DNA of 64,000 bases from Balanoglossus misakiensis. Its lineage: Eukaryota > Animalia > Hemichordata. The DNA is taken from contig CM082591.2 of NCBI GenBank assembly GCA_040954595.2, positions 186,001 to 250,000 on the forward strand, written 5' to 3'. Positions 1 to 60,097 of this stretch are shown here, piece after piece (position 1 is the first letter of the stretch; each line of letters opens with the position of its first letter). Position numbers and translations under genes: made by a program. The notes below the pieces were generated by a model that was given only the letters and a program-made list of their open reading frames with translations, was not told the origin of the DNA and ran no database searches.

Positions 1-3000
1 AAATATGTATTCTTTCTCATAAAATTTTCATAGCACAATAGTAAATATGAGTAGATAACAAATGACAGGGAAGCTCACAACATTTATGAAAATATGTCAT
101 TACATTAGATACCATGAATTCTTTTGAAAGTTGTCTTTCTTCTGAGTTTACCTTCATTCACAATGCTATCAAACATTTTACCATTTGCTGCGCTTGGGGT
201 GAATATCTTTCCAAGACAACTTATGAAGCCATTGTTTAATATTCCAACAGCAACAGAAAATATGACAAACATTGTACAGCGACAACTGTGAGTCAAGTGT
301 GTTATCAAACAATTGCATGCTGAACAGTTTACTCCCCTGGCAAGAAGAACGCTAATTATGTTTTAGGTTGGGCATGGCGAAAGAGTTCGGAGTGATTCCT
401 GTTTAGATAGTGTGATATCCTTATGCAAATACTCAAGGAGTCAATACCATCGTCACCACGCTAAGCTAAGGTGTGAACCAATTTGCATATTATAAAGTGG
501 TCAAGTGTCACCCAGGAAAGGGTACTTAGAAAGTAGATGATATCTAACAAAACTTCGCTTGCATTTCACAATAATTTGGATTTGGATTTCAAGAATCAGG
601 TACCTTTATAAAATGACACCAAGTATGGAAATATTGACATCATATGTGTCACACTTCATCATGACACTCTTAAAAGTAAAGATCAATTTCCAATCTGCCT
701 GTCATCTAAGAAGTGCTTCAAAGATTATAGCATTAAGACTTATTGATGAATTATATCTGTTGACAAATTCAGTTTGATAGCACGGGATGTTCATGATGGT
801 TGAGGAAAAATCAAACACGAAACCTTGATGTGTCCTATATCCATATAACATTTCTGTATTGTATCATAACACGTGATCGGAAATCTAATATCTAGTGAAA
901 TCAGTGCCATAAAGTCACCGTCATGAAGCTGATTTCTTGGTCTGATCTTCATGTGACCTTCTCACGATCTTGAATGTAATCTAGCTGGAGTCTGCAGTGT
1001 TGAAACTGGCAGAAGAGATAGAGAAAGAAAACAAGAGATCAAGTTTCACTGTCTGTAAATAAGAAATGGTCTTTCACATTTTAGTTCATCGAAGCATGAA
1101 AGAATTATTCTGTTTCCACACGGCCTTTCATAGTGAAGGACAAAAACATTTACATTTAAATTGGAATCTCAGCAATTAAATGCAATATCGGAACAACCCT
1201 ATCTGTAATTGCCTTATCACGCCCAAACAGAATGTCTCTTAGTCGCTTCATATCCCCAAGTGGATCCCACGGAAATGACAAAAATTTTCCCAGAGCTACG
1301 CTTCCCAAATACTTTGATCCTCTGTTCATTAAACTCAGAACAAGTGTCTTTAGTGAGAGAATGACCTGCCAGATTATTATCACCACAAATGCCCACCTGA
1401 AATCTCAAAGTAATTACCTGTAATGGCCGACAATAGTTTGAAAATCTCAGCTGATAAGATTTTCACGAAGTGAAGTCGAGTAGATAAAGTTTTTAAAGCT
1501 TTTGTTCAGTGTACATGTACAACGTAATTATGTACCGGTAGGTATGTATATGTATGTAATCGAGCTACTCTGACATTATATAGTGACGAGTCCTTCTTGA
1601 AATTATAAAATACTATTATAATATTGTCATTTGTTATAGAAATTCTACTCATACCCAGCAAGTAAAAGATATACTTCGCATTGTATTTAAAATACAACGT
1701 ATCAACAAGGCTATTAAACCTCTGAGGCCCGAGGGTATCTCTGCTTCATTGTCAAGTTGAAACTTACATTGGCATTCATGCATGCATGCATGACTTGAAT
1801 GAATAATGTCAAAGTTGCAATGACAAGTTTGCGAACTGTGTCAATTTGATTCAATGGCAAAAGTTTTCAGCAAAGAATGGGAAATCAGAACCAGTCATTT
1901 TTTTAATTGAAGCTGAGCATGTAATTTTTAGGTTATACACCAGGGCTCGGCCACTCAAAAGAAGACTGCATTAAATAACGTGAGTAAGATGTGACATCAC
2001 CTCCTGGCCATCAAACCATTGCTGTTATCACATGATAGCACAATCAAATTGATAAAACGACAGTGTTTGGCTGAGCTGGCCAGGCAAAATTTTACAATCT
2101 CGTAAAAGGGATTGCCGAAGAGTCAATTTAATTGTAATCTCCTTTAAAACCAATTGATCGGCAAAGCCAATGATATTAACAATTTAGTGAATTATATGTA
2201 CATGGTTATTGATGATTTCTAATGCAATATACGGTATATAATGTTAGTAATTGAAATAATGTGCGTTCTTCACAAATGTATCTTAATCAAAATACAGCGC
2301 TGAATACACATTGTAAAACGTCTAGCTGATGCGTTTCATCACATTCAACAACCATTTCATATGTGTGTGCTAAGAAACTCACACAAAACTCATTTTGGTG
2401 TGTTCTAACTAAGTGACTTTTTTGTGCTTACGTGAAATATTTGAACTATAGCTACATAAAGTACCATTTAAAATGAAATTATGTCCTCTGTGTTAAATAA
2501 TTTATTCTGGTTATTAACAGAAACTATGAACTAATTTTACGTTCAAAAATTTAATTTGAACTTTCCACTTTTGTCATTCAAGAGCGTCGCTTTTCTGAAG
2601 TAAACCCATTATTCAATGTACTTGCTGTAATAGACTGTTGGACACTTAGCATGCAATTTCCACCGTTCTCATTTTAATACTTATCAATTTGAACCACAAC
2701 GTTTGTTTTATTGACCTTACGCCTACGTCGTTCGAATGTTACAGAGCAAGCGTTAATGGACTTAGGTGAATTCGAAGTTATAGATGTATGGCGTTTATAA
2801 AAATGTTCAACAACATCAACAATATCTCAATGAAAGTGGCAAATGTTCTCTTATTCATAGCACAATACATTATTATCTGTGTATGGAATCGTGTTCCATC
2901 AGAAAACAAGCAAACATGTTGCAAATTACAGGAAAGACCAACCGTTTGTGAAATTCAGTTCAGAAAGCATTCCTTTGCTATACCCGGGGAGGGGGGGATG

Positions 3001-3137
3001 GGTTATGGCGGGGTATGTGAAACATGCGAACTTGAAGACGGGATGGGATGCCAATGTTTTATGAATGAATTGAGTCTACAACTCACTCAAAACTTCTCTG
3101 TATTTTAATTGTTTCAGATCACAGAATAACCAAGACT

Positions 3138-4537
3138 ATGAATAGGCTGATTGTCATCACATTTGCTTTCCTTGCAACTCTTTATGTCACATGTTTCATT
3201 GATGTGACAGCAGCATACGATGACACAGAATCGTAAGTATTTTATATTTTATGTATTTTTTAAAACGTCGCCATGTGAGCTTTAGATCTGATGTTAACAT
3301 TATTACTAGTTTTCTTTGCATACCTCTGTCAGAGAGAAAACACACTTGTTTAATCAATTTTCTTTGATTGACAGGGATGATTTAGAAATCCCACCAAATT
3401 ATTGGTCACAACAACTGGCAGAACTCACAGAACTTGTTAAGCTTGGAGAGCAAGTCCTTGCCGAAAAGTTTGCCAAAGAAATGTAAGTAATTATATTCCT
3501 TGTCACCTACAAACATCTAATCTTAAGCAGAATGGACCTTTTTTGTTAAGGTGGTAATTAGAAATATGAAAGTGGTGCCTTCTACATTGGAATTCCTACA
3601 GAAATGTACTGTAGTTCAGATTTACATAAAAAATGGCAGTGACGCCGATCCCTTTACCCGTAGTAAATTTCAAGACAGTGACGATTGTTTTTGCTGATTT
3701 ATGCACACCAACGTGAATGGTGCAACAATCTTCAAGTTGTCTTAACCATGTGTAACCTTTTACATTTGTTTTCTAATGCCGGAAGGTGTTGAAAATTGAC
3801 AATATTACATTACAGTAAACCTTCTTCATAGGACATCTTATAAAGATTTCACGGATAGTGCAAGTTGTGGAAAACACTATCCTTATATTGGATTGGCAGC
3901 TGTATTAGTGGAGAACCCAGGTGTTCAACTAAGAGGAAATGTGATATTTTGAAAAAGATGACATACAATAAGGATTGTATGATATACAGAACAACTTACG
4001 TGCAATAAGGGTTTTCAACACTCGTAAAATTGTGGTTTAAATTTTTCTCTGGGGCGTGCATTATGCATGTGTCTATTGATGTAAATCAATACAGTAAACC
4101 TACCGTCAAATCCAATAATGGGTTCATTGACTTTCAGCCTGACAAACTCCACCACCTGACGACATCTTTCTTATCTGTGCATTTCCCGCCAAATCGAAAT
4201 CTTTAATGTGCAATTAATATTAATATGTCTGACGTCCCTTGCTATTTGTAGACCGACTAGTTCTCAGAAATGTAAGAATTCAACAATATAATATTGTATT
4301 TTCTGGTTTTGGATGGTACATAGCAGAGTATACTGCTCATTCATTTTATCTCATGATGACAATGTTGCTTTTAGGGATGAACAGAAACGCGGACGAGGTT
4401 GTAGCTCCGCTGCAGTGTGTAGTATGACCAAAGCAACTCGACAACGAGTAAAAGGTTACCATCAGAGGCCGCCACTGTTTAGCGGCGTCGGAAACCCAGG
4501 ACGAAAGCGACGGGGCGTAGAAAGTGACCTGGCGTAG
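3138..4537 (+). CDS. Calcitonin-type neuropeptide precursor, isoform A (CT1 exon), 121 aa
   Basis: Exons 3138-3232, 3375-3482 and 4375-4537; both introns are GT-AG and phase 2. Signal peptide MNRLIVITFAFLATLYVTCFIDVTAA, then an acidic propeptide, then KR|GRGCSSAAVCSMTKATRQRVKGYHQRPPLFSGVGNP-G-RKRR. The Cys-x5-Cys ring and C-terminal Pro-Gly-basic site (Pro-amide) are the calcitonin-family hallmarks. Confidence 0.9.
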
Positions 4538-4842
4538 TGATTTTTTAAGTAGTTGCAGACTAGCGTGAGTAGGCACAAATCGTTCATGCACTTCTGTAAA
4601 TGATAACAACCATGCCTAATTTTGTGCACACTTTTCTTTCGTTATCTTGCACAACACGCACACCAATCAGGAAAGCCTCCAAGCGTGGAAGAGGAACCTG
4701 TGGGGGGTTCGCTGGCTGCGCTCCACTACATGCTAGTCGGCTATCAGCCTATAAGACTAACAAAAACGAAGGTGTATTCGGTGCAACCAGTCCTGGAAGA
4801 AAGAGACGAGCAACAGAAAATGTTGCTGACACACAAGCGTAA
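3138..4842 (+). CDS. Calcitonin-type neuropeptide precursor, isoform B (CT2 exon), 124 aa
   Basis: Exons 3138-3232, 3375-3482 and 4671-4842 (phase-2 acceptor caccaatcag|G). Encodes KR|GRGTCGGFAGCAPLHASRLSAYKTNKNEGVFGATSP-G-RKRR. The C-x5-C ring and FGxxxP-amide end resemble echinoderm calcitonin-type peptides. Confidence 0.9.
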
Positions 4843-5212
4843 AAAAATTGAGAAGGGAGTGAGTATCAATAACGCATGCGCAAACCGCTTTGTTCAAGCG
4901 GTTCATTTCTATGACAAGACAGGCTTTTGAGTTTTGAGACCTTCAGTCGTATATCTGCACAGGGCGCCCTCTATACACACAGCACAGCAAATCTCACTCT
5001 TTTGGTTGCAAGGACTCTTCACATTAATCAACCCATACTGAAAATAATCACAACAGTATATTTATCCACCCAGCATCCATTCACCTTCATGTACATCATC
5101 CAGCCTGTCACGTGACAAGAATCATATAGTTTATGTTCATGTTAACTCACATTGTATTAATTGGTAAATTGCATTATGTTAATTAGTCAACAATTTATTC
5201 ACATTACGACAG

Positions 5213-6223
5213 AGGATCTCAAATCTGTAGAAAGCCTGCCATCGATGTAAATTGTGTCTCTTCTCAGCGCAACATCCTTCTCTCTTTTTGGCTGCAAATT
5301 ATCTCTGCTGACTTTTCTCTGATCTTATAATCTGATCTAAATCTCTATCTAATCTTATCGTCTGCTTCCATCTTCTAACTTATTCTTGATAATTATTTCT
5401 GTAGTTCCTACCCTACATGTACTTCCTTAACCTAGACTAGTTATGTAGGCTTGTAGAATGAAACTTTTCAGTGTCCACGTCTGGAGTGCTACCTACAGAA
5501 ATACGGTATCGTATTGCATGTATTTATTCTCCACTAATAATCTTCTCTTTCTGTGAGTTAACTCAGTTTCCTTCATGTTGTCTTGGTGACTGTTGTCGTA
5601 GTCATATGTGCGTGTTTGATCGATACTACCTCAGGTCTATCCCACAAATTGGATAAATAGGATATTCTGATTGCTTAAATTCTGATTGAATTCTTATTTG
5701 TATAATGCTATAAAAGATCTATTTCCCTACAGTTGTTTGACTCTTCAAACAAGCACAGTTCACGACTTTGTGTGCCGTGTGCGTGAACGCATGCACAGTT
5801 TTATTCGGTGTAAAAGCACTCACTTTCGTTTTCCTATCTTTTCTCTTGTTTGGCTGCAGGTAAATGGTGCATCAATTTATTTTAATCACACCATAAACCA
5901 CCAAGAATTCTTTACACAGAGGCGCACCAGAGAGGACAACCAACAAACAAACAAACAAACCCTATAAACCTCAAGTGATCTTGCACAAATTTTGTATTCA
6001 CTCCCTGGATTTTAAATGTGGCATGGCTTTATTTTCTCACTTAAAATAAATTTACATGACAACGGTAAATGAAACTTGTTTAATTCATGTTTTGGAGAAA
6101 AAACACTGAACCACAAGTCAGCGTCGAGAAAAGTTGTAATTCTTTCTGTTTTAGTTTTGAAATGGAATGTATTTCACGGACTTATATTATACAAGAATAA
6201 ACATGCTTCTTTATTTAAATAAA
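5213..6223 (+). other. Probable shared non-coding terminal exon (3' UTR) of the calcitonin-type gene
   Basis: GTGAGT donors follow both peptide exons (4565 and 4859). Candidate acceptor acattacgacag at 5212. AATAAA at 6045, 6196 and 6218. Confidence 0.5.
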
Positions 6224-7291
6224 CTGATCTATGTTGAATAGCAAAATGTGTGAATATTGCGATTGTGGTTAAACTCAACAAGGAAACTGTTTCAAACCTT
6301 TATATCTATATATGTCTGTCTGCCTGTCTGTCTGTTGTCATTAGTGGAAATCAAAGTAGTTGCTTACGGGCCTGATGGTTTAGCATGTGTAACAATTTAG
6401 TCTAGCTACTGTGCTTGAGACGCCATCAACACTGGGCTCTTAAGTCGCATAATGTTATTTGATAACCTTATGGTCAAATACTTATGTGCAAAAACCACAA
6501 AAGAAAAGAAAACATCATATTTGTACTGGTTTGTACATTTGACCGTGAACCACTGCGTTATTGCAGATTGTCAAACTCTATGAACAAGATCATAGCAACA
6601 TAGAATTGTTTGCTTGTTTGCATCTGCTATTGTTACCTTGTTAACCAGTTTTCAATTAAAAGTAACCAGCACAAACAACCATCACATCAGAACCACGTGT
6701 TCTTTCTCTCGTCTAACAATTCATAGACATCGGCCAGTCACACTGAGTCAAGCTTTGGCCAATGTATGGAACCCACATCGAGTATATTCATGACCACGAC
6801 ATCCTGACGGATTTGATTTCGTACCTTTATCCACGGAAGCAGTGATGCATGAATTAATCTGAAAGCAGTCCAGGGGCTGATTGATACAGAGATTAGGACT
6901 GCTTGGAAGTTGGCGTTGGCTACACGACTATGTCTCCTGCAAATACACATTTGTTTCGTGCCCCAGAGGGACAATGAATAGATAGATGAATGCCAACGTA
7001 CGCCTTCTAGTCTTTGCACATAATCTCACGAGGGATAGTCCAATAAAACTTTAATCCTGTGGTATCAGATATTCAGAGACTGCATACTATGCCATGTACC
7101 GGTATATCCCCATCGGGTATTGGCAAAATTGGTCACTTTTGTATTGGTTGAATAGTTAGGCAACAAAAGGCTCAAAATTCTTCAGAGGAGTTTGGGAGTT
7201 GGAAGTCAACTTGGGAGGAAAGGGAGACAAAGGAATACCAGTCAATAGAATAGAGACTATTTCACAAATGTGAAAAGTACATGTAAGGTGC

Positions 7292-9096: not shown

Positions 9097-12000
9097 TCAT
9101 AAAGGCCTAAGGAATCTGGAAACTTTAGAACGAAGAAGTTTAATGAAAGATTTTGGAAACATTGACCTAGAATCTTCTTGGGTGTAACGAAAGTAATGTT
9201 CCGGAAATGCAATTACGTCAAACAGTGCTGCTACAAGTACCTTGTCCTAGAAAAAAAAAATTGATTTTTAATTACTCTCTCGTGCTATCAATACAACATC
9301 TCAAGTCCCATCAAGTTGACCAGATTGTCCGTAATTAAGGCATGCAAATTGTTTTGACATATGCCACCAGTCTGAGAGTGCCACATATTTCAAATCTGTT
9401 GATGTAACAGGATGTTTAAAATCAATAACGGAAATGAAACAAAATAAGAAATACCTTAAGAATCTCTTGATGATGATCAGATTCATACAGACGACCATCA
9501 CGTACAATGTCAGAAATAAGATCTTGATAATTCTCTACAAAAAAGTGAAATTTTTGTCATGGTTGGTAGTCATGTCAAAATATTGAACAACCAAAGCAAA
9601 ATCTGTGCGACTTCCAGTGGATCAGAAAATATACACAAGAGTTGAACTTAATATGACCAGATAAGCACAGAACGGATACCCATGTTGTGGGGGAAAAAAT
9701 TGAGAAACTTGCAAATTAGTAATTGCCTCATTTGACTATTCTGATTGAGATCTCGGTTGATCACAGATGTATAATTGCAAAAGTTAACCAAAATGTAAAT
9801 TAGCAATTTCTTGACAAGTAGTTCTTCTGATACGTACCATCATAAGTCACGTATGGAATCTGAAAACCTTTTGCACTAATTCCACTGTTAGTTTTAAATC
9901 GAATCCACAATCTGCGCGAGCTGGCAGTGAAGGCTATGGGCACACTGTATGTCCGACATGTCTCGTATGTTGTCACAGAGTATGGACTAGCTGTTGGTAT
10001 GAACCCATCAGAAAACTGGTTAGAAAATCAAGATCGCAAGTTCTATCAAATTATCTTTGTTTCATTCTTTATATCTCTGGACACTTGCCCATTCATATAC
10101 ATCATACACATAATTGTTTTGAAATGTGTGTGACATCAGGTGTTGCATAAATACATTCACCTCGCATCACACCAAGTCAGATACACTTACAAGATTTTCG
10201 CATAACAAGTTGATCACCACAAGGATCATCTGGGTCATTGGCCAGAAATATTTCAGGAACTACAACTAGAATTCTTCGTCCTTTTGGCGGAACGATACTC
10301 CATTCACATTCAATATTGGATGGATAGTCACCGGGGTAGTTCGGACTCTCAATGAATCCTGTATAGTCATCTATGAGCCCACCACAGGTTCTATCTGTCA
10401 AAGCAGTAAACAGATATGATGGACATCAGTACACCAATATCAAGAAATGTTTTTCTTTCTGTATGTTTTCCTTTATCCTTATTAAAATACGACGTGTTCT
10501 CACGATTTTTTGCTCCTGGTGATAGATTCGGTCTTTTTATCCAGTGTTATGCGCTTTTTTCATAGAGTTTGTTTTGGTCTCTGAGAATATCATTTTAACA
10601 ACCTTTGCAGGCAGTAGGTTCAGACGCGCCGGGTTCGTCCGTCGTAGTGCCCCCTGGACATCGCACACAAAAATTCTGCGTAAAATCTGGTTGATAAGTG
10701 CCTATTGGACATTCTTGACATGAATGTGTTGAAATGTTGTAATAACTGCCTGGTACACATCGTTCTAAGAAAGAAAAGGAAGATAATTTATAAAGTTAGA
10801 AGAAAACGTAGACAGTTGAACAATGAATCATTACACTTACAAATCTATCATGTTGTCTTATTTAAATGGCTTCAAAAACTCCCATAGTTACCCTATAATT
10901 TAATTAGCACTGCAGCAATATACCAATTTTATTCAAGTTTGGTCAGCCTTTGGAAATATCGGTGTGCAGATAGCCACCGACACATATCTAGGTGGAATAG
11001 TATGTCCATTGATCAGCCACTACGTATGAGAACATACCTCTAACAGTACAATCTGCAAAATTAGCGCCCCCAACGGTCGTGGTAGTTAAACCTGGACCAC
11101 ATGGAAAACACGATGTCCTGCCTGGCTCAGGTTGATAGGTTCCCAATGCACACAATGTGCATGGTCTGAAACTGTCAGCAGAATGTTCACCAGGTCGGCA
11201 CTGACCTGTTGAAACAAAATATGATAGCTACACCCGTTAAAGTTGCTTTACCCAATCTTTGAAAGGTGAAATTCATGAACTCATCCAAATGTTCTCACCA
11301 AAATGCAATAACCGATGACCTGTGACAGTTTCAAAGACCAGAGACATACAAAGCAGCTTTTGTGTTCGGCTTGCACAGAATGAAAATATATATATCCAGA
11401 CAGAAAATACAGTCACTGATCGACTTGCTACTAGCTGTTATGATGATGTGGTAATCACACTTACTACCACATTCCGATATGTTCCGTGCTCCTAGAATTC
11501 CATTGCTACCATCAGGACATTTGTTACAGGATAGTTGCCCTTCTTTATCCTGGTACGTGCCCGCAGGACAGGGTACACATATATTCTCGGCAATGTCGTA
11601 CGAAGTACCAACACTACATGCCACTGATTAGAAAAAGAACAAAACTTTGGTGTTATGAACTAGTGACAATGTCCAATCTGATTGTCCCCGTATGTCGTTT
11701 GTGCATTGACAAATAGTTGTCTGGTGCTAGGGATCTCATAAACGGTTAGCGTTCATGACTTGTGTTCTGTAAATTATTGAAATGTCCAGATGCATTTCCA
11801 TTTATTGCATTTCTTTAAACATAATGTGTTGAATTATGAGTGCAATGAGTCTCCTGTAATCAACTTCTAGTCTCTGTGTAGAATCCTTTTTCTTAACCAA
11901 CAAACATGGCGAACACCAGGGCAATGTTTACTCAACCAACATGCCTTTGTCTACCAATGATTGAACTTCTATTTCAAGCTTTTTTTCCAAAGTGGCGCAC

Positions 12001-15000
12001 GATATGGTGCCACTTTTACTGGGGTAGCCTGTTGTGTATCAATTTAATGCCTCCCACATTAGAAAAATTTGTATTATGAAGGGTTCAAAACTGCATTTTT
12101 GTGGACTCAAAATAAATATTTAGTCCTCAAAGTTTTCAAGTCCCCCCCTTTCAGTCCCTAAATTATTTCAAATCCCCCCCTTACATACCCTCAATTGTTT
12201 TCAAATCCCCCCCCTCAATTCTCTCCCCCCCCCCTCCCTCCAGAGGTGTTTGTGAATGCAGCCTTATCCTGTGATAAATTCATAGCCATGATACAATTTA
12301 ACGGACACAATGCTTTATATGAAGAAACATAAGAAGGCGATACAAAAGCTCGGGGTAAACGTGTTGCACTGACCTGCGTTAACAGATCCCGTGAGGAGTA
12401 CGGTGCCCAGAGTGCTAACACATTCCCAAACTCTCGTGGCCTCTTTTTGCAAATTCATCGACCAAAACTTTTTTTCAATAAGATGGTTTAAAACCAGGGT
12501 TTTCAAGGGCCTTGTCAAAACTACCTGCACAGGAAACCATGATGGCCAACATGCAGCTAAAGGATGAGGCAATTGCGAAGGGATAAAAAAAACAGTCAAT
12601 ATTTTTTTAGAGAATACAGCATACCAATTTTGTACACTGCTGGCTACCAACACTCTCACTCATCAATATCATGTCAATGCATGTCATTTTCAAAATTCAT
12701 TTTCACTCCTTTTCCATGGCATTTTTTCTAGGAAAGTTTCACACACGATAAATTCATCTTCACTCCTTTTTCATGGCATTTTTTCTAGGAAAGTTTCACA
12801 CACGATAACAGTAAGTATTCTGCAGACGCACGGAGACATGACATGACCTCAAACAACAGTTGCTACATTTTTTACTTGTTGCAATTTGTCCGTGTTACTA
12901 CGGCTATGATGCTATTTATAGGACGCGTCTAAAAATAACTGGTGCACTGAATGAAATGTACAACGCGTACTGTTTGAAATGTATTCAGGGCTTTTCAGAA
13001 ATGACAGTAGAATTAACGTGTTCTCTCGAACCGGGGATCAACCTTACTGTTGAAAATAACCTCCTTATCCTGTGATAAATTCATAGCCATGATACAATTT
13101 AACGGACACAATGCTTTATATGTAGAAACATAAGAAGGCGATACAAAAGCTCGGGGTAAACGTGTTGCACTGACCTGCGTTAACAGATCCCGTGAGGAGT
13201 ACGGTGCCCAGAGTGCTAACACATTCCCAAACTCTCGTGGCCTCTTTTTGCAAATTGATCGACCAAACCTGACCAAAACTTTTTTTCAATAAGATTGTTT
13301 AAAACCAGGGTTTTCAAGGGCCTTGTCAAACTACCTGCACAAATATTTTTTAGAGAAACGACAGTAGAGTTAACGTCTGTTCTCTCTAGTCTAGAATATA
13401 TCCGTTCGTAGTCGCATTCACCCTACTACGTGAATGCGACTACGAACGGATAGATTCTAGACTAGTTCTCTCGAACCCGGGATCAACCTTACTGTTTAAA
13501 ATAACCTCCTTATCCTGTGATAAATTCATAGCCATGATTAGTCTAGAATCTATCCGTTCGTAGTCGCATTCACGTAGTAGGGTGAATACGACTACGAACG
13601 GATAGATTCTAGACTAAGCCATGATACAATTTAACGGACACAATGCTTTATATGAAGAAACAACGCCAACCTAAATAATATCGGACTGTCGACAGAGATC
13701 TGATCGGACGATAAATGCCTAAATGAACACTGTATAGCTCTGAAATCACAGCAAAAGAAGGCGATACAAAAGCTCGGGGTAAACGTGTTGCACTGACCTG
13801 CGTTAACAGATCCCGTGAGGAGTACGGTGCCCAGAGTGAACACATTCCCAAACTCTCGTGGCCTCTTTTTGCAAATTCTATCTAACGCGGCGGTCGGAAC
13901 TCGCCGGAATACACGCGTTTAGAAGAAAATATCGGCTCACATCGAACTGCTCAGGTAAACACATCTTAAATCTAGCGATCGGTAACCCGGGGCTGGCTAT
14001 CTGATAGGGATAAAAGAGGACTAATCGGGAAAAATTGCACAGAATCGAATATTCTCGTCCATCTTCCCACGCGGCCACGCCAATTCTCCTCATCAATATT
14101 CATGATATTAAATATATGATAGAGACGCTAATCACATGACCCAGAACGCACTTGTGATTGGTTTATCACTCACTACGGGCGAGATGGAGGAAACCCCACC
14201 ATCCCAGATTATCAGACAAATAACGTAACGGTTACCATGGCATCACCACCACCACATCAATGTTTATATTCTTCTACCTGTGAAAAAAATTTATCAAGGC
14301 ACTGTATTTAAATAACAAAAAAACGAACGGGGAACCTACCGCATTTATCGTCAGAAAACACCTGACCAAGTTTGCAGAAAAACTGTTCCTCGGATGATTT
14401 CAACGACTTTCGGGTTACTTCGTATTCCCCTCCAGAAAATCTGATCAGAAACTGTTTCTTGTTAATGGATCTTCTCAGTGCATTCATGGTCCTTTTTAAA
14501 CGTCGCCTTGTCAGTTTCCTGACACATTTCACATCACAGGCATCTAAACCAAATGATGACTATTTTAATGTCTTATCATAGTGTAATAAATTTGGTTTTA
14601 ATGAATAAACATTTCTGAATAACTTGTGTGAAATCCGTCTTTACTTTCACTCTTACCTACTAGCAGCGCGGTAGCGCCCTTTTAAAAATCCTCTACTCGA
14701 AAGTGGAAGTGACGTAAGTGGTACAGACAGGAATGACAGACAGGTAGACAGACATATGATAATTTACCTGTAGGCGCATCAGCAATCATTTGAATTTCAA
14801 ATTCTGCTGTTACCATGGCACTTGACCTTTTCTTGGCTCTGCGGTTTCGCCGTCGCGTTCCACACTTTAAAGTCACAAAATTTATTTGACACATATCAGA
14901 ACACGGATGTTGCCTTTGCTCTGAAATTAAGCACAGAAAACTTTAACAGCGTGTAACTCTAATCTCCACTCACTGTGTCGTTTTCATCAAATTGCCATAT

Positions 15001-18000
15001 TTTTAGGATGCATTTACTGTTATACATGCTTTATACTCCTAAGATACTGTAATATCACTATGACGATACATTTGAAACAAAGTGAAAGTTTGAAACATAA
15101 ATATGACCTCACCTGATAGTTGTTTAGACAGTACGTCATGAAACCTTTCGTTGCTTCGTTTTCTCAAACGACACTTGTCAGCGGAGAAGGAAAATCTGGC
15201 GATTCTTTTAAAAGATGGTGCATCTACGTCCTCTAGGAAGAGAAACCCGCGAAATATTTAGATACATACATGCAATTCAATGGAAAGCTAAACACGTAAA
15301 ATTCTATTTTATTTGCATTCTTTGAGAAAATTCATTGGTATCATACCATCATCACCACTGCATGTACTGCAGCAATTTGAGAACAAAATCACTTTACAAC
15401 GAAAGATGGTCACGTGACATACCCGAGCAGGAGGGCATTGAAGAGTTGGTTGATTCGTGTGGCCAAACAAAACCTGTGGTGTCTCCACAACTGTAACTAA
15501 ACGTGTCCTCCGATTCGGCAACAAAGTGAGCGTTGTATTCGCAGGACAAACTGCAGCTATCGACGTTGTCAATCTTGTTGCAAGTCAAAAGTGCCTTGGC
15601 GGGCTGTTTTAATGGCAAACACGTCGAAGATTCTGAAATTATAAATATACAAGTCATGAAACTCACTTTACATGTTCAGACACCTTACATGACAGAAAGA
15701 GTTTGTCAATCATATAAAATACACTTTGTTCTCTAATAAAACCGATAATTGCTTCTTATATGATATTTGTTTCCTTACAACACACTCCGCAATTGCAGTA
15801 TTACAACCGTTTGGGATTAACATGATCAAAATCAATCCATAGAAGTCCCTGACCGACGAGACATGGTTTGTCTAGGGATGTAGAAACGTAAATAGGTGTG
15901 TGGGTGTACCACTTACCAACACAATCTTTTCCATTCGCGTGTAATTTAAATCCCTGATTACATTGGCACTGATAACTGCCTGGTAGGTTTATACATCTAT
16001 GTTGACATCCGCCATTACCGATCGAACACTCATCCCGGTCTAACAGATACAATAGTGGAAAGAGAAACACATTATAGGCTGGTACTAAAATGGCTCTTCG
16101 TGGCTTACATCTACCAGGAATATTAAACACTTCCTTGAAATCAAATTTTCTTGGAAAAGGTGACAGGCTTATCAAATATATACATAAACAAGAATATTTC
16201 GACGTCATATATTCCATGTTGCGTTAGGAAAGGAAGAAATTCTTCGAAGGAAGACAAACATCAAATTAAAGATCACAAACTAGGCCAGGTACATAAAATA
16301 CACATCTATACGATTAACATCAATGTTATTCAGATCTAACCAACTTAATAATTCTATAATTAGTGTACTGCTAACTTCCTGACCCCATTTAGAAAACTAA
16401 TCAACTATTAATTATGTACGAAACATTATTACCTCCACAGTGTGTGATACCATATTCTTGATAACCCTTATCACAAAAACATTGGAAGCTACCAGGTGCA
16501 TTGATGCACGTGTGATCACACGTGCCATTGATGGCACACTCGTCTATATCTGAAAAAAAAAGACAAAAAGTTCAGATTATGACGTGCGTTGACGTATTCG
16601 ACAAACAAATCGTGATTTGTGATATTTCGCATTTTGAACGAAAGGTTGTTGTTATTTCACGTAATTTCACAACGAATCCACATCGTTGACACTACAATAC
16701 AATGTAAAGAAATAAATCACATTACGAAATAGCGATACGCGATCTTGTAGTGACTTCGCGTTGGTGATGACCTAAAAACGACGCAAACAATAAAGAGTGC
16801 AAATGGTTTTTCTAATCAAATGTTAATTTGTTTACCTCTACATGTCTGTCCGTCTGGCAATAGTTTGAAACCATGAGGACAACCACATTCAAAGCTACCA
16901 AGTGTATTTTTACATTCTACTTCACAGCCACCATTATTTATTGCACATTCATCAATATCTGTAGAGTAAGTGGATTCAACGTAGGATTAGATCCATGCTT
17001 GGCTGAAACAACGATTACAGCGCCACCAGTGTTCGTTTAAACAAATTAATCTGGAAAAATGATTCGAAAACCACATGTCTTCTCGCTGGAGACAACGGAT
17101 GAGAGTACAGACATTGTGAAAAACTGTTTTTAACAACGATACCTTTACATGTCCGTCCATCAGGTTGAAGAAGATATCCGGGCGGACAGCTGCACTTCAC
17201 TCCCGTGTCCGTGTCACGGCATACACGATCACAACCACCGTTGTTTATCCCACAGGTTTCTAGTGAAACACCACAAAACAAAACAATGACACTCAGGAGG
17301 AGACTCCTGTTTCAGATGAATAAAATCAGAATTTCATTTTCATTTACGTTGCAATCTTAGTGTCTTTTCAGGTGCTAGACATCACTTGAAATAATCTTTG
17401 TCACGGTCCAATATCGACATGATCGATTATCATGCATTGGTTTTTCAACTCTGCGTCACGTCCACGTGACTCGGTGTAGAATAGTTCGACCTTCTACTTC
17501 GGCATATCTCAGTGTATTTTATAAAAACAAGTGCATTATACGTGCAAGCGTGAGCATTTTACAAAGATTATTGGCGACCTTTATCAAAAATTTAGGAGGG
17601 GCACGCCTTGCTTTACACTATTTTTTATCGTACATCATTTAGTTTGTAAACGTTTGTGGCCTATATAGATGAGAGAGTGCAGAAAACGGGGTCGCCAACT
17701 TTCTTTGACTGAAGAGCTTGCGGTAGTAATAATGTCAAGGTTGGAAGTACCTTTACCTATACAAGTTTTCCCGTCTGTATGCAGATTATATTTAGATAGA
17801 CATGTACAGATTGGTCCAATTGCCATATCTGTACATTGATGCTGGCAGCCTCCGTTGCCATGGGTACACGTCGCTGTGAAAAAAAACCCAGAGTGAACGT
17901 TCCAAAAATTATGGCTTTCCCGAAAATTCAACAAAATCATTTTGCACTATTCAGTTTTATTGTGGGATTTTTAAATTGTTTTCATTGTTGGCCAAACATG

Positions 18001-21000
18001 TACGTAACTAGTTTCGCTACAGGCAAATCAATATCTATAAATCATTGTTAAACTTACGTGCGCAGTCCTTCATATTACTTGACAATAGAAAACCGTAGCG
18101 ACATCCACACACAGAATCACCATCTGGTGTATCCACACAAAAATGTGAACATCCTAAATTAGGATTTTTACATCCCGGATCCACTGTAATGCATAATAAT
18201 ATATACCTTTAACTTTTGTCGATTTTATGCTTACGGCGGCTAGTTATACTTTGCGAAACAACGAAACAGCGAAACGAAACAGCGAAACGACGAAACCATT
18301 ATTAAAATAGGGGCCAGTCATCAAGACGGTGGCGTATGATTTTTTTTAAAGTTTCCAAATAAGTTCCTGGTGTGCGGCCTGGTACTAGTGGTTGCGCGCC
18401 AAAAAAGAATCCCGCCCCAAAAGGTCAATGTACGAGTATATTCACAGGGCTAAGGATTAGTTGAAACAAAGCAGTAGTGTCCGTAAGCTTTCGAGGGTCA
18501 AACACTGATGGGGGGTAAGAGTAGTAGTTATATATAGAAACACATGTAACTCACACAACACAGTATCATTGTCGAAATTTCTTTATTATCTTAATTGCAA
18601 TTCATGCCTCCCCGCCTTGTGGTATTTAAGGAAATAGTGACAGTTGCTGCCGCATTTTGAGGTTTCGATCTTTTGTGGTTTCGTTGTGCGCGCGCGTATA
18701 TTCACTGTGTATATGTAGCAGTTTGGCATGAATCGTTTGCGCGCACACGACGTCGACTCTACCGTACCACTACATAGTACCAGGCCGCAGACCAGGAACT
18801 GGCGACCCGCCGTTTGTTTCCAACGCCAAATTTGATTCTAATGTTGAATTTCCGAGAAAACAATTTATCTGACCTGTAGTTTTCTTGGCTCGCTTACGTT
18901 TTAATTTGGAAACTTTTAAAAAAATCATACGCCACCGTCTTGATGACTGGCCCCTATTTTAATAATGGTTTCGTCGTTTCGCTGTTTCGTTGTTTCGCAA
19001 AGTATAACTAGCCGCTTACGGCCAACAAGCGACCTAGCGGCCGATCCCTCCCTCCCTCCCTCCCAATATCTACGTGTGTTTTTTATCTATGACATGCAGA
19101 GAACATGACACATACGCAGACAAAACACAGACAAACAAAGATAGAATCGGTCAATACTCACACGAACACGTTTGTCCATCTTCATTTAAATAATGTCCAT
19201 CTGGACAGGTACATTTGTAACTACCCATTGTATTAATGCAATCGTATTGACAAGCATGTACTCGGGATGTACACTCGTCCTTATCTAAGAAGAAAAATAC
19301 AAACTGTTAAATAAACTAACAGTTGTCTACAGTGGATGTGGTGGACGGATTTTGTTCAGTACAGAAATCATATTCACTTGACCACTGTGTAATTTGTGTG
19401 AATCTAATATTTTCTTACCAATGCAGTTCCTTTCATTGAGGTGAAGTTGAAATCCTACTTTGCATTCACAATGGAAACTACCTTCTGTATTTCTACAATG
19501 ATGAACACAACCTCCGTTGTTGACTTGGCATTCGTCAATATCTGAAGAAGAACAATACATGGTAAGAGAAAGTATCGCAATAGATATGCTGCAATGTGCA
19601 CAGAATCGAGTTTTTCCTGAGAAGGAGAGAAAATCGAGAAATGTCGATACAAGCAAATCCACCAAATAGCCAAACATGTTGCAACTAATTTCACTTCAAG
19701 TGTAGTATAGTATTGTCATACTGCCAGGAAAATACTCATTCAGAAAAATTGTCAGAGTCAAAATTGCAGCCACGCATTGACTGATATTCCGCCATGACTT
19801 CCTTCAACGTTCTCTGAATCTATTCATCCAGTGAGGACCAGGTCATTGACACTTGATGCCTGCACCCAGTCACAACAAAAAGACAATATACGGATACAAT
19901 CATTATTACTCAGACAGGTACGAGTGTATTTTGACGTTTTTGTTTTAAATATCAGTGTGGCTCTCTGCTTTATTGCATGACCACAATCAGATAACTGTGT
20001 GAGTGTACTTCAAAAATTCCCTGTTAAGGAAATGGGAGGAAGGGGTAAGATGAGCATACAAACTATTCATGCTTTGTATTGCACACAGCAGTAAGTGTAC
20101 TTATGTTATGCAATGTCAGTTACTTTAGTAGTGAGTGACCTGTGTATATGCAACGCCAGTATTAACACATTCTTACACAATTGAATAGGCTACAAAATCT
20201 CAACTTTGTATTGAGTTTTATTAGAACCACTCAAAGTGAAAGTATTGGAGAAGTAAGGGGAAATTGTACTTTGGATACAGCATGCTTATAGTACTGCAAT
20301 ATAGAAGTGTGTCGAGCAAAGGAAACGAAATTAAAGGTCTGGGAATCAGGGGTTTTAGTTCAGGTTAGAGAGGATGTCAGGCTTTGCGAAAAGAGATTGA
20401 TGGATGATGTTATTTCCTTATAAGTTTTGGCGACTGCCAGTTGATGCGCATGCCTACGACTTCAAGTTCATGGCGTGTTTGAGAGGAGCCAAGTGGTTTA
20501 GGGGGGGGGGTTAACTGAAACTGTTTTCCCGAGATCAGTTGTTTCCACGAGCAATACAATACTGAGGTGTAAAATTGTCTTCATAAACAGAGTGAATTTC
20601 TCACCTGAACAGACTCTACCGTTCCCATGGTAACCATTGAGGCACGAGCAACGAAACGACTTTGGCGTGTTTTGACAGACAGCGTGGACGTGACAATCGT
20701 GAGTATTTAGTGCGCATTCGTCCACATCTGCAAAAAACAACCAACCAATGATAAAAAGAGGATAAATGGGTTATTTACATTTCACATTCTTCCCAGTTCA
20801 TCAGAAGCCCATGGGATAATTACTTTCAACTTCTTAAAATAAATGCGCTTAAATGCCGAGGTGGATAGTTGACCGTACTCGTAGCAAATCTTGTCTCTTT
20901 CAAAGTGCGTCTATTCTAATTCCGATGCCAGGACAATACGCAGTGTTATAGCAAATCTACACATCTGCCAAGGGTTGTTAATTGGTGAAGACTTTAACAT

Positions 21001-30000: not shown

Positions 30001-33000
30001 CCCAGAGTAAAACAGAGTCCGTTCGTCCACAAACACAGACAAAATCTTGTCGTTGGAGGCGCTCTCCACTGTAATGGTTTCTCCGTATTTTTTTCTCTCA
30101 TCTACATTGTACAATTTGCATTGGGTATGCGAACCATGCCTTCCATAACTAACCTTATCTTTTGACACGACTGTTTATAATAGAGTAAATTGCCATTAAA
30201 TTGTCTACTGAAACACACCATACACTTCACAACGACAGCGCTCTATATGACCAAAACGGATGCCGAATGACACAAGATCTCACTGGTTGCAACAATGACG
30301 TCACGTGTTCTGAACTAATTGGAAATCGTAACATGAAGTGTCCATACCAATTGGCAGAGAATGACGTGGCCGGGTTAAAAAATAAACGCAATGGGGTTTA
30401 AATACAACGATGTGTCTGTTATTTATACGGAGGTTAAATTGATAGACAGCTTGGAGAGATAATAAACAAATTAAAGAGCGGATTTGTCCGCCACCGCTTT
30501 CATTGTTAGCGCTGTCACGTGATTAACTTCATGTGGTTAGTTACCTGGCTGACTGTAAAGATTTCTAAACAAACACCAAACATCATAGATCAAAATGCCG
30601 CAATCACCAATTTTAGCTCGACTTTCCCTTGAGATCTGTCCCTTCTAGTAGATAGACTATTATAAATCGCACATTTTCCGATTCGACGATGGCCACATTC
30701 ACCGTTATTGGACAATTTCGTCTTATCATTCACAACTTTCAGGAAGAAGAACCTGAGCGAGCATTGACGGGTATGTATCAGTGAAGTTTTAAACCAAGTA
30801 AACAGTGTTCAGAAGCAGTACTGAAAGCGACCAGGATCATTGGAATGATTAAAAGAAGTTTTACCCTTCGAACCAAGGACGTCATAGTACGCCTTTACAA
30901 ACAATTTGTCAGACCCCATTTGGAATATGCGTCCCAAGCCTGGGCTCCATGGCTCAAAAAAGATATTGCTGCCCTGGAAAAAGTTCAGCGTCGCGTTACT
31001 AAGCTAGTAACAGAGTGCCGTGGAAAAAGTTACCCTGAGAGAATGCATATATTAGGGCTTACAACCCTTGAAACCCGCCGTGTAAGAGGTGATATGATAG
31101 AGGTTTTTAAAATTTTGAACAACGTAGATCGCTGCTCAGTTACCTTGATGAGAAGTTTGTGCTCAACAACTAGAGGTCATGACTACAAGCTCCAAAAGCT
31201 GCCATCCAGACTAGACATTCGCAAATATTCATTTCCTGTTCGTGTTGTGAACGAGTGGAACGCTTTACCGGACTTTGTGATTATGTCAAAGGATACAAAC
31301 AATTTCAAGAACAATATTGACATTTATTTTCAAGCAACTGATAGGATTTGAGGGACCTTATTATCTTAGATATTTGTCCCTTATGAACTGAACTGAACTG
31401 AACTGAACTGAATCAGTGAATTGCCGTGGAGGGGGGGGGGAATTGGGAGCAGCGAAAGAGAAAATTGTAGCCATGCAATGGATGAAAAGGCTGGTGTGAT
31501 TGAAAGGAAGAAAATCTTGTGGCAGGCGAGGGATAGTGATGCGTTTCAATAAAGAAACATTTGAAATTGTGTGGTGCTGGTTTCGTTTCCGTTGCATGTG
31601 TATATACGTCAACACTTTTAAAACCAGTTTGCTAAAATTATTTTAAAAAATACGCTTACCTGTGTCTGGTATAAGTGTTATATTGGCCTTACATAACCCA
31701 GATCCTGTACGGTAATTTCCCGATGGTACACGATTAAAACCAGCATATATATCATAGTCCATTTCCCCAAATACAGGAACTTGTCCTTTTAAAGTATACA
31801 GGAATTGGCTGTTAATAAAACCTTTGATAGAGTTGTGATTGTTCCAACCAATTCTTTCATCACTGACTTCCAAAACCAGTCTGCTGCCGTCGTCAACTAG
31901 ATCATCCACAATTTTCATTAGCAAACCACCGTTAATTGTCGCTCCCATGTATCCTGGCAGACCGTTACTATAGATACGCATTTGTCGGTTGAAAATTTGA
32001 GTCTCCGCCATATTGCTTGTGTGACCTTCATCGCCTCCAAAACCGTCTCCGCTGACAGAGTCCGAAATATCAAGTGTCCACAGCCTCGGTGGTTCTTCAT
32101 AGTCCAAGATAAATTTGGCGGTCTTAAAAGGTCCTGAGAAATCTATTTTAATAACAGCTTGACTGTCACATTTTGAGTTCCCGTCTGTCTGAGGTGGTAC
32201 AATGATGTCGATGTATGGACTGTTGCCATTGACTGTGCCCTGTAGAAGATCGATCATAATAGACTCGCCAGAACCAACCGCACCATTGCCAAGGCCACAA
32301 ACTGAAAAATGAATTATCATAGGTTACTTACAAATCATCCTTTCGGTAAGACATCATTACGTACAGTCAAATAATATTACCATTTTAAAGGTAGAGCGCC
32401 ACCTAGAGAGCTTTCTCTTCTCCTGTGATTATATAACTAATAAGTTGAGTAAGAAACCCGAAAAATAAAAACAATTACAGGTAGACTAGGTTTCTGATTG
32501 AATAAACTTGTTGAAAACTCACTTCAATGGGCCTAAGTTGCACAAAATGTACGCTCGTTCCATATAGCAGTACAACGCTATTATTGCAAACAAGATTTTA
32601 ATGATGGGCAGTATTATTTTTACATCATTGACAATTGTGTAATTGTTAAAACAATGGTAACATTGAATCTTTTATCGGTAAGGTCACGGTGTTGGACAGA
32701 AATCGCGAGGCGTGTAGGTTTGACGTCGACTATGCATAATTATCCCTTCAATGGAAAACTTAGTGAGTGGTTTTATCTGTGTTTATGCTTACACTTCACA
32801 CTAATTCAAAAGGTATTCAACAAACGCATTTCAAAACAAACACTGTTTTCTTAAAGCTTAAAGGAGTGTGTTAGCGATTTCGCCGTTAATCCCCACCCCA
32901 GGCGCCCATCCGTAAACCAAACCACAAAGACAGCAGTAACAGAAATAACACAGCAGACAAGTCTAATGTGCAGTAATTTGGCTAGTACTTCAGTAAGATA

Positions 33001-40255: not shown

Positions 40256-42533
40256 AGGGGGGCTTTCGTTGCCTTGCGAGTCGATATTGTGTCGGAAGTT
40301 TGGGAATGACACAAAACAAGAGACAAAGTCAATAAGGCTGCATCGATTCAACTCAAATGGCGCGTAAGTGAAAGCTAATCTGCGATGGAGTCGCTTCCCT
40401 TGAGAAATGCGACGATAATATTAAGTGGACATGAACAGTATTAAATTAACCCAATTTTCCTTTCGAAGCTGCCTACGCGCTGCATAATGAAGGCTTGTAT
40501 GACTAACATCTCACATCTTCCGGTTTCACGATAATCCTTCCTACACGATGTTTCCAAAGTGATATGCAAATTAATTCCTACGAGGGAATAGTCCACCGAA
40601 ACTCAAACTTGTAATAACAGAGTACACATTGCATCTGAAAATATGCTGATTGTACATATTTAAATGTGGCGTCGGTCAGCGCAAAGCATCATGCAATGCC
40701 CCTGAAATAGAACATTTTCTCGGCGAAAAGGAGACCAGTTTAGTTTTCACGGAAACTTTTTGAAAAATAGTTGGTTGGCTAATGTTTAATCGCCTAATCA
40801 CTCACAAGCCTTCCCACTCGTCTGCTTCCTACTCAGTATTCATCAGCACTCCACTAACTTTCAGACCCTACTCACTTAATTCACAATGTATCTTGGTGCA
40901 GATAACACAACACTCAGTGAGACGATAATTTATCGGAGGGAATTGATGAATTGCTGTTTGTGAAGGCTGGTTTTCTGCTCGAGATAAACGTTTCTTTCCG
41001 ATACACGAGAACGTTTCTGCCCCTTTCTTACAAGGAAAATGTTATTGGATCTCGACGTTGGGTCGACATTGCACTTAATTATGATTACTATATTCACGTT
41101 ATGAAATTAAAGTTAGGATGCTGTTATTTATTCTGTTCATTCACTTCACACTAGTCTTAGTCCGATTCCCAAATCACTAGATCAATAATTGTATTACAGT
41201 TCTCGTGCGTTTCCATTTCATGTTTTCGTGTATGTAAAATAAGCGTCTTCAGTTAAGGCTATTACGAATTATACTTATAACCTCGACCAATAAATGTAAT
41301 TTCAAGTTGCAGAGAAAACGAAATATTTCACGTGTTCGTTGCTACATGTTGAAGATGAACATTGAATACACATGTATTAAACGAACCACTTTCCATCATC
41401 GTCAGGTAATAGACACACAATCTACAATAAAAAACGTATCCCCACAATTAACAGGTAGTTTAAATAATTGACCAGAAGATTACTACTCTGGGTTGCGCAG
41501 GTGAACGGTGGCTAGTCTGAATTGTAAGAGGAGATTTGTAGTTAATTTGGAACATTGATCACGCGACGATTGTACATTAATGACGTAGACATTGATTTGG
41601 GGATCGATGACTGATGTTGTATGCAGTGCACGGTTAACTCTCGTGGTGATAATGCACAATGCAAGGAACGTGAAGTATCTTCTCAAACTGATGCACCAAG
41701 GGTCAAAGACCGAAGATTACACCTGAGGACCAACATGTCCTTCATGGAATGACTCCATGATAATACAATATTCTCCACAATGTCAAGGCAAATATCCTTG
41801 TCAGAATTATCCCCGAACTCCGCGTCTCTGACAACACTGTCAGTATCTGTACGCTTTGCCAGCAGTGAACATGCAGGTACACTTTCTTTTTCAACACCTC
41901 TAACCCTTATTTTGCAAGGAATCTCTTATGGCCACCTTTCATTGGCAGTCAGAGTAGTAGTTAGAAATATACGTTATATTTGTCTGAACCACTTAATTAA
42001 TGAGACTGTCACAGGTGTAGTCGGTAATCTTAAAGGATGTTTCCTACGCTCTGATAAATTCATTGACATTTACTTGGAGTCACCTATTAAAACGAATGTA
42101 AGCAAAAAAACATGACATAAACTATGCGTACTTGTAACGGCAAAATCAGAAAGGAAACATACTTACTGTTTAAATCATAAACGTCGAAAAGCTTATTAAG
42201 AACGTCTCCCATCCTTTCTGACTGTATATCCAATCCTTCTATGTCTCGAAGTTGTCTCTGTTGTATGCTTGGCAGTCTTCCAATTACGGCAGTTGTTTCT
42301 GGTTCACGTTTGGTTTTCCTAAATATATCTATATTATAGTGGACATTATCGTTATTTTTAAGGGCTTTGTTGCTCTCCGCAGTCTGTTTGCTTTGTCTCA
42401 GTGGACATAATAAGCAACTGTAGTTAACAGAGTTCGTTAGAGGTGCGCCTTGCACCCAGACCATGGTATCAAACACCACGTAGACGAATATAAGAAGACA
42501 GATCTGCCTCGGTGCGCTACCCACTCCTATCAT
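39190..42533 (-). CDS. Uncharacterised secreted prohormone-like protein with a single C-terminal EF-hand, 140 aa
   Basis: Coding exons 42533-42167 (upstream acceptor cttgcag at 42564; donor gtaagt; phase 1) and 39245-39190 (acceptor tctctttcag). Hydrophobic signal ...ICLLIFVYVVFDTMVWVQG|AP, basic sites RKTKR and RQLR. Splicing rebuilds the helix-loop-helix LNKLFDVY-DLNNDDFISRSE-FASVFRLLH*. Confidence 0.8.
40218..40262. repeat. (GA)n microsatellite plus G-run
   Basis: Read directly from the sequence. Confidence 0.85.
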
Positions 42534-59960: not shown

Positions 59961-60097
59961 TTTGTAATATAAAAGAGCGCATGCGTTAAAGAAAATCCAG
60001 CGCCCTCGCTGGCGAGACGTGAAGGGGTGAAAGGGCACTGGGGTCATGACCTGCTGCAATGTACACAACATACAACGTTGAAGGATAGGGCGCGATC
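59956..60097. promoter_or_regulatory. Bidirectional promoter shared by PDHX and APIP
   Basis: Only 137 bp separate the divergent ATGs, and the stretch is locally CpG-rich. YY1-like CAAAATGGCG overlaps the PDHX ATG; NRF1-like GCGCATGCG at 59977-59985. Confidence 0.7.

Follow-up and report, generated by a model that had tools for sequence, protein, structure and literature searches.

Predicted choice between two stop-containing peptide exons in a calcitonin-type gene of the acorn worm Balanoglossus misakiensis

Introduction

The textbook example of a single gene that yields two hormones through RNA processing is CT/CGRP, and a review of invertebrate deuterostomes (PMC6283891) treats such complexity as acquired by vertebrates. 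In the vertebrate gene, CALCA, the signal and propeptide exons are shared and each mRNA carries one peptide, the exons being joined as 1-4 or as 1-2-3-5-6 (PMC4772807). A locus of the acorn worm Balanoglossus misakiensis raises the question of whether a comparable choice between peptides is made in a hemichordate, by what device, and whether such a choice would share its origin with that of CALCA. Two tandem exons of this locus, here called CT1 and CT2, each encode a calcitonin-like peptide and a stop codon of their own, with a splice donor shortly after the stop, and the original prediction, made from the DNA alone, was of a CT/CGRP-like splicing switch in an invertebrate. The analysis described here covers the whole 64,000-nucleotide stretch of DNA that contains the locus (the window), and all positions are counted from its first letter.

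Gene layout and the two peptide exons

All exons of the predicted gene lie on the plus strand. By analogy with the sea-cucumber gene, whose first exon is non-coding, a non-coding exon 1 is tentatively placed here too, which would end at the donor GTGAGT at 1980..1985, GTRAGT occurring only twice on this strand upstream of 3118 (at 288 and 1980). Exon 2 (3118..3232) contains the ATG at 3138, contributes 95 coding nucleotides up to a phase-2 donor (GTAAGT, 3233) and encodes the hydrophobic core expected of a signal peptide, as judged by hydropathy only rather than by a dedicated predictor; its product is 74% identical to residues 1-31 of the Ptychodera flava precursor. Exon 3 (3375..3482) is 108 nt long, begins and ends in phase 2 and is followed by the donor GTAAGT at 3483; it encodes an acidic propeptide with 66% identity to P. 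flava and 84% to Glandiceps talaboti in tblastn comparisons. The CT1 peptide exon (4375..4564) follows the acceptor TTTTAG/G and encodes a predicted mature peptide at 4391-4498 and a stop at 4535-4537, with 27 nt of 3'UTR before the donor GTGAGT at 4565. The CT2 peptide exon (4671..4858, acceptor AATCAG/G) repeats this order, with a predicted mature peptide at 4687-4794, a stop at 4840-4842 and 16 nt of 3'UTR before the donor GTGAGT at 4859. A common non-coding last exon is predicted at 5213..6240, its 3' end being approximate, with AATAAA at 6045, 6196 and 6218, and this prediction agrees with the non-coding last exon of the sea-cucumber gene. The acceptor of the last exon is a tandem one (CAGAG at 5211-5214), either AG of which is usable with the protein unaffected.

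The acceptors at 4375, 4671 and 5213, both stops and both GTGAGT donors named in the original prediction are all present, and its expectation that either peptide exon would join exon 3 in frame is borne out by splice arithmetic. Because the upstream coding parts come to 95 and 108 nt, both peptide exons join in phase 2, the resulting precursors having 121 aa via CT1 and 124 aa via CT2, with one peptide each. Within 3100-5300 the plus strand has GTRAGT at four sites only, each of them a predicted donor (3233, 3483, 4565 and 4859), and the chance of finding this hexamer at most 30 nt from both stops is about 3.5e-4.

Both predicted mature peptides have 36 aa up to a proline and contain a C-x5-C pair (cysteines 4 and 10 in the CT1 peptide, 5 and 11 in the CT2 peptide), followed by Pro-Gly-RKRR. 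The cysteine pair and PGRKRR are each invariant in all eight aligned cassettes of the window and its acorn-worm relatives, and a dibasic KR lies upstream. A C-terminal Pro-Gly before a basic site, together with an upstream dibasic site, is described as a feature of calcitonin-type precursors (PMC6002491, PMC6283891, PMC4772807). A strict form of the cassette motif has two matches in the six frames of the 64 kb, both at CT1 and CT2, as befits the two tandem exons of one design that had been claimed; among 200 Markov simulations, one match arose in a single run and two matches in none. No third cassette was found in the window by motif scan and tblastn. The CT1 and CT2 cassettes have the same acceptor phase, and are 38% identical as protein, with 123 of 242 aligned DNA columns in agreement. 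None of six distinct CT-type queries, drawn from the cassettes and five precursors, matched the calcitonin family in Pfam, which short divergent invertebrate peptides can escape, and the Saccoglossus kowalevskii orthologue likewise went without a score. A PDB sequence search gave no calcitonin match either, and because of these two results it is the motif and the precursor layout that carry the family assignment, on which the locus is judged to be a calcitonin-type neuropeptide gene.

Acorn-worm orthologues and their isoforms

A protein search with the CT1 exon confirmed one of 12 candidates, isoform X2 of P. flava (122 aa), with the end of which CT1 shares 83% identity over 53 aa, and CT2 is 72% identical to the end of P. 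flava X1 (126 aa). When P. flava X2 was used as query, covering lengths of 67-214 aa, four of seven candidates were accepted, namely X2 itself, P. flava X1 and G. talaboti X3 and X5; G. talaboti X4 was added as a cluster member. HMMER with the CT2 exon gave three matches, one of which is S. kowalevskii X1 (63% identity), while the other two, unrelated repeat proteins of one type, one of them named Flavobacterium, were dropped. A word search with CT2 among longer proteins confirmed none of 15 candidates and was of limited sensitivity, having missed P. flava X1 within its range, and a metagenome scan with CT1 confirmed none of 595 pattern matches. The P. flava RefSeq models (XP_070546530.1/XP_070546650.1), the CT1-type single-peptide isoforms X3, X4 and X5 of G. 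talaboti LOC144448357, and the CT2-type, single-peptide X1 of S. kowalevskii LOC100372673 are all labelled 'uncharacterized protein'.

P. flava X1 and X2 are identical over their first 69 residues, diverge at the residue that matches the junction at 3482, and terminate at stops matching those of the window, X1 containing CT2 only and X2 CT1 only; two accessions exist for each. All six related records (P. flava X1 and X2, G. talaboti X3-X5 and S. kowalevskii X1) hold one peptide per record; this set leaves out X1 and X2 of G. talaboti and the one or more remaining isoforms of S. kowalevskii, among which a fused form may exist. The XP_ records come from automated modelling and, as protein records, are silent on which exons form the 3'UTR; RefSeq model variants usually rest on aligned RNA. 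The claim that each mRNA should yield only one peptide thus finds support in single-peptide isoform models of three acorn worms, which use the same junction.

Because the identities of the two cassettes to P. flava (83% and 72%) are about equal to or higher than those of the common exons (74% and 66%), both cassettes look functional. It is scarcely credible that one of them is a silent duplicate in a gene that makes one peptide only, as both keep an open frame, both cysteines, Pro-Gly-RKRR and a full donor, each has a conserved counterpart modelled as a P. flava isoform, and two calcitonin-type peptides have been reported for S. kowalevskii (PMC6002491 supplement, PMC6283891). In a tree of the eight cassettes, built with no outgroup, the CT1-type (five rows) stands apart from the CT2-type (three rows) with support of 99/95, S. 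kowalevskii X1 forming a long branch. This split and the two peptides reported for S. kowalevskii are the reasons why the CT1/CT2 duplication probably predates the three sampled acorn-worm families, which we take P. flava, G. talaboti and S. kowalevskii to represent. One of the S. kowalevskii peptides reportedly goes back to Rowe et al. 2014. Window exon 3 is nearer to Glandiceps and window CT1 nearer to Ptychodera. In S. kowalevskii, CalC is expressed in neurons of the proboscis and the ventral cord, in data that do not distinguish isoforms (PMC10508912). A published description of either/or calcitonin splicing in hemichordates was not found, though Rowe et al. 2014 or PMC12638048, whose Fig. 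13 marks species with spliced precursors, may have it; the feature is real and conserved, present in RefSeq as unnamed models, and apparently undescribed for hemichordates.

In the G. talaboti locus LOC144448357, which has at least five isoforms, a single precursor comes with three or more distinct CT1-type endings. X4 and X5, at 94% identity, may represent an assembly duplicate, and X3 is 70-72% identical to X4 and X5. As read from these predicted proteins, the endings suggest an expanded choose-one array of hormone exons.

One peptide per message

In the mechanism proposed here, a choice would be made between the acceptors at 4375 and 4671, the chosen peptide exon would then join the non-coding exon at 5213, and joining of CT1 to CT2 would be disfavoured. 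A convertase would cut at KR and RKRR and, with amidation at Pro-Gly and the formation of one disulfide, CT1 or CT2 would be released. The arrangement could have originated by tandem duplication of a stop-containing peptide exon upstream of a non-coding exon, which would give an either/or output at once. It is likely that exon 3 is spliced to CT1 or CT2 and that each mRNA would yield one amidated peptide of 36 residues; an output of one peptide per mRNA, taken by itself, is highly probable, and strict exclusivity of the exons, with CT1-CT2 joining disfavoured, may be held with modest confidence.

A message that contains the CT1 stop would yield only one peptide, the exception being use of the weak donor at 4534. 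None of the 13 poly(A) hexamers tested occurs in 4538-4670 or 4859-5212, the first AATAAA being at 6045. With the introns behind both stops free of these hexamers, it is likely that CT1 and CT2 alike depend on the exon at 5213.

The inter-cassette intron (4565..4670, plus strand) is 106 nt long and contains a pyrimidine tract, a 98-nt gap between AGs and eight CAC triplets. The A of its sole branch-like motif, CCTAAT, stands at 4619, which puts 55 nt between it and the CT1 donor and 51 nt between it and the AG; the mammalian donor-to-branch limit is roughly 50 nt, against which the 55-nt distance is borderline. AG gaps of at least 98 nt precede 26 of the 3361 YAG sites in the window, and eight or more CAC triplets occur in three of 1206 segments of 106 nt, the inter-cassette intron included, each of these two statistics having been chosen after looking at the intron. 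CAC clusters are bound by RBPMS-type proteins. The stop would lie 27 nt before the last junction in a message with CT1 only, 16 nt in one with CT2 only and 215 nt after double inclusion, and the vertebrate rule for nonsense-mediated decay (NMD) sets its boundary at a stop 50-55 nt before the last junction. We know of no demonstration of junction-dependent NMD in hemichordates. CT1-CT2 joining would be disfavoured because the likely branch point lies only 55 nt from the donor and because the product, with its 215-nt stop distance, would by the vertebrate rule be exposed to NMD. Mutual exclusivity of exons is known to be enforced by steric interference and by NMD, and the inter-cassette intron resembles the steric exclusion of tropomyosin-type pairs, albeit at a borderline distance (PMC4165533, PMC2991248). 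The 27-nt distance between CT1 stop and donor is likely inherited, and not due to selection for exclusivity, since the sea-cucumber CT2 exon has it too.

The main alternative is that the choice is either/or at the protein level only and that splicing follows the echinoderm pattern, with the CT2 exon always included, the CT1 exon optional, and the CT1 message carrying CT2 as 3'UTR, which would alter the third step, the avoidance of CT1-CT2 joining, and leave the one-peptide output in place. Double inclusion gives the same 121-aa protein as CT1 alone, so that protein records cannot separate this arrangement from exclusive exons, and the two accessions of P. flava X2 could differ by inclusion of CT2. 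However, X1 has a second accession as well, which points to a UTR difference shared by X1 and X2, and constant inclusion of CT2 would have to accommodate a stop 215 nt before the last junction, a branch-like site 55 nt from the donor with an unusually long AG-free zone, and the at least three CT1-type endings of G. talaboti, which are easier to obtain by choose-one splicing. On this evidence CT2 is possibly, though doubtfully, a constant part of the message.

Two candidate control systems for the choice between the acceptors at 4375 and 4671 were considered and rejected. Control by RNA structure of the docking/selector kind was dismissed as the inverted repeats are short and at chance level, and the region 4540-4700 folds with z = 0.18. 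Control by Rbfox was dismissed as no site lies at CALCA-like positions, the nearest TGCATG being at 4064 (-311 from the CT1 acceptor); a GCATG lies at 4874, after CT2, and both motifs are frequent, the plus strand of the window having 34 TGCATG and 68 GCATG.

A latent fusion donor and the echinoderm genes

A latent weak phase-2 donor, GGC/GTAGTG (4534..4539, plus strand), overlaps the CT1 stop, and both its existence and the in-frame fusion that it permits had been correctly foreseen. Its use would shorten the CT1 exon to 159 nt, take its stop out of the message and link CT1 with CT2 in one in-frame ORF of 177 aa, a two-peptide precursor like that of sea cucumbers. By eye, this donor is no more than about a codon away from where the CT1 exon ends in sea cucumber, a position that fits such a product, and G. 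talaboti X1 and X2, which could encode it, lie outside the six records. Yet the donor is without the +4 to +6 consensus, whereas the other four donors are full GTRAGT, the position of the CT1 stop is kept in P. flava and G. talaboti, and none of the six retrieved records is fused, the P. flava X2 query having returned no fused form although 177 aa is inside its 67-214 aa range. A fused precursor is very unlikely to be the product of the gene.

The gene of the sea cucumber Apostichopus japonicus, as given in supplement file 3 of PMC6586643, has six exons with a non-coding last exon, and coding parts of 83, 84 and 150 nt that put every coding junction in phase 2. In its CT2 exon, 27 nt lie between the stop and the donor to the non-coding exon. 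The echinoderm part of the exon-phase comparison that the original prediction called for thus comes out in agreement, the sea-cucumber coding junctions all being in phase 2 as in the window. In sea cucumber and brittle star, the transcripts described contain CT1 and CT2 or CT2 only, and never CT1 only (PMC5627052, PMC12638048, PMC6586643), which matches the optional inclusion of CT1 in a two-peptide precursor that had been given as established for sea cucumbers.

The six-exon, phase-2 scaffold with a non-coding last exon is common to the window, where exon 1 is tentative, and the sea-cucumber gene. The two genes differ in that the sea-cucumber CT1 exon is stop-free and reads into CT2, whereas window CT1 has the stop at 4535-4537, and in that the intron between the peptide exons spans about 2 kb in sea cucumber, as against the 106 nt of the window. 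In a comparison by eye, 10 residues separate the amidation glycine from the end of the CT1 exon in sea cucumber and 11 separate it from the stop and latent donor in the window, and AjCT2 is like window CT2 around the cysteine ring, the sea-cucumber sequences standing outside the tree.

Both window cassettes end in GCG-TAR, which suggests that the stop came first and that the echinoderm CT1 donor arose at that stop. We infer that the peptide-exon duplication is at least as old as the sampled acorn-worm families, and it may be common to echinoderms. Whether a two-exon gene already existed in the ancestor of echinoderms and hemichordates, with one donor shift separating the two modes, seems to us evenly balanced. 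PMC12638048 leaves open whether echinoderms inherited their two-peptide gene or acquired it on two occasions; the scaffold match in a hemichordate favours an ancestral two-peptide gene, with loss in starfish, sea urchins and crinoids.

Neighbouring genes

Several other features are found in the window. On the minus strand at 11331-20770, possibly reaching to 32323, lies a gene of many exons, several of which encode calcium-binding EGF domains and one an Ephrin_rec_like domain; by domain order we take this gene to be SCUBE-like. In humans SCUBE2 is found close to ADM and CALCA on 11p15, and SCUBE1 close to ADM2 on 22q13, and the linkage of the SCUBE-like gene with the calcitonin-type gene may be an ancient synteny. 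Exons of a 2-oxoacid dehydrogenase acyltransferase are found at 55118-60095 (minus strand), their best PDB match being pyruvate dehydrogenase protein X (E 2.7e-12, versus 3.4e-9 for E2); human PDHX lies on 11p. At 31643-32323 (minus strand), an open frame of 226 codons has the look of a real coding exon and no Pfam family, and is possibly part of the SCUBE-like gene or of a neighbour; an Atlas search with the exon 31646-32323 gave a single match (0.80), which was uninformative. The open frame at 42087-42545 (minus strand), with no Pfam family above the cut-off, may be the first exon of a further secreted precursor, as suggested by a stretch like a signal peptide and a furin-like site, RKTKR. 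A further open frame at 30785-31351 (plus strand), with no Pfam match, resembles the C-terminal end of a LINE retrotransposon protein.

Comparison with vertebrate and arthropod calcitonin genes

The window gene is like CALCA in that the pre-pro exons are common to both products and one peptide is encoded per mRNA, as indicated by splice arithmetic and the isoform models of the relatives, and it is in this output that the CT/CGRP-like label of the original prediction holds; the peptide exons of CALCA also join in phase 2, which speaks for homology. The label does not extend to the mechanism. The calcitonin exon of CALCA, exon 4, is terminal and has its own poly(A) site (PMC3647115), whereas no poly(A) signal follows CT1, which has the full donor at 4565 instead. 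CALCA exon 4 is repressed by Rbfox sites at -34 and +45 (PMC2777236), and no Rbfox motif lies at comparable positions in the window. Both window peptides end in the Pro-amide motif, as calcitonin does and unlike CGRP, which is without it (PMC6002491).

These differences bear on the question of ancestry. The two switches would be homologous if a single duplication had taken place in the deuterostome ancestor, been retained in acorn worms, echinoderms and CALCA, and been lost in amphioxus and tunicates, which would account for the six-exon layout with two peptide exons found here, in sea cucumber and in most vertebrate CGRP genes (PMC6283891). Such homology is unlikely: in Ciona a gene of four exons encodes one peptide, amphioxus has three genes in tandem, and the model of PMC6283891 begins with a single chordate gene, vertebrate complexity being acquired later. 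The alternative polyadenylation of CALCA at exon 4 is absent here, its Rbfox sites are without positional counterpart, the nearest TGCATG lying 311 nt upstream, both window peptides have the Pro-amide of calcitonin and not of CGRP, and, as the additional duplication in G. talaboti shows, such an event readily repeats itself. An either/or switch older than the vertebrates, carried by a six-exon gene with two stop-containing peptide exons in the deuterostome ancestor, is improbable to the same degree. Under it, acorn worms would have kept the gene near-unchanged, echinoderms would have turned the CT1 stop into a phase-2 donor, vertebrates would have gained a poly(A) site in exon 4, and amphioxus and tunicates would have lost or split the gene. 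Because the Ciona and amphioxus genes are single-peptide and G. talaboti shows more exon duplications, convergence with CALCA is more likely than common ancestry, and of the two origins that the original prediction had offered, ancestral or convergent, it is the second that gains support and the first that is less supported. The acorn-worm duplication is probably independent of the CT/CGRP duplication.

A parallel to the convergent switch favoured here comes from arthropods, in which either/or calcitonin splicing has already been published, so that the novelty claimed for its occurrence in an invertebrate falls away. The termite (Zootermopsis) gene has six exons and gives calcitonin A or B transcripts (Veenstra 2014, PMC4237046), and calcitonin A/B splicing is also described for cockroach and decapods (bioRxiv 10.1101/2021.07.28.454216). 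The arthropod A/B gene is like that of the window in its six exons, its alternative calcitonin peptides and its common non-coding last exon, and both A and B types have the disulfide and Pro-amide predicted for the window peptides. The arthropod messages differ beyond the peptide exon, mRNA1 being without exon 5 and mRNA2 without exons 3 and 4, and the B form holds three peptides, whereas each window cassette holds one. The expression of the arthropod forms is biased by tissue, A being neural and B of the gut (PMC4237046, bioRxiv 10.1101/2021.07.28.454216). The comparison indicates that acorn worms reach a CALCA-like output by another device, namely stop-containing cassettes with a common 3'UTR exon. 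Together with arthropod A/B splicing, it suggests that calcitonin genes are predisposed to evolve peptide switches, because their peptide exon holds the stop and a non-coding exon then follows. As predicted from its sequence, the acorn-worm switch would be CALCA-like in output and arthropod calcitonin A/B-like in mechanism.
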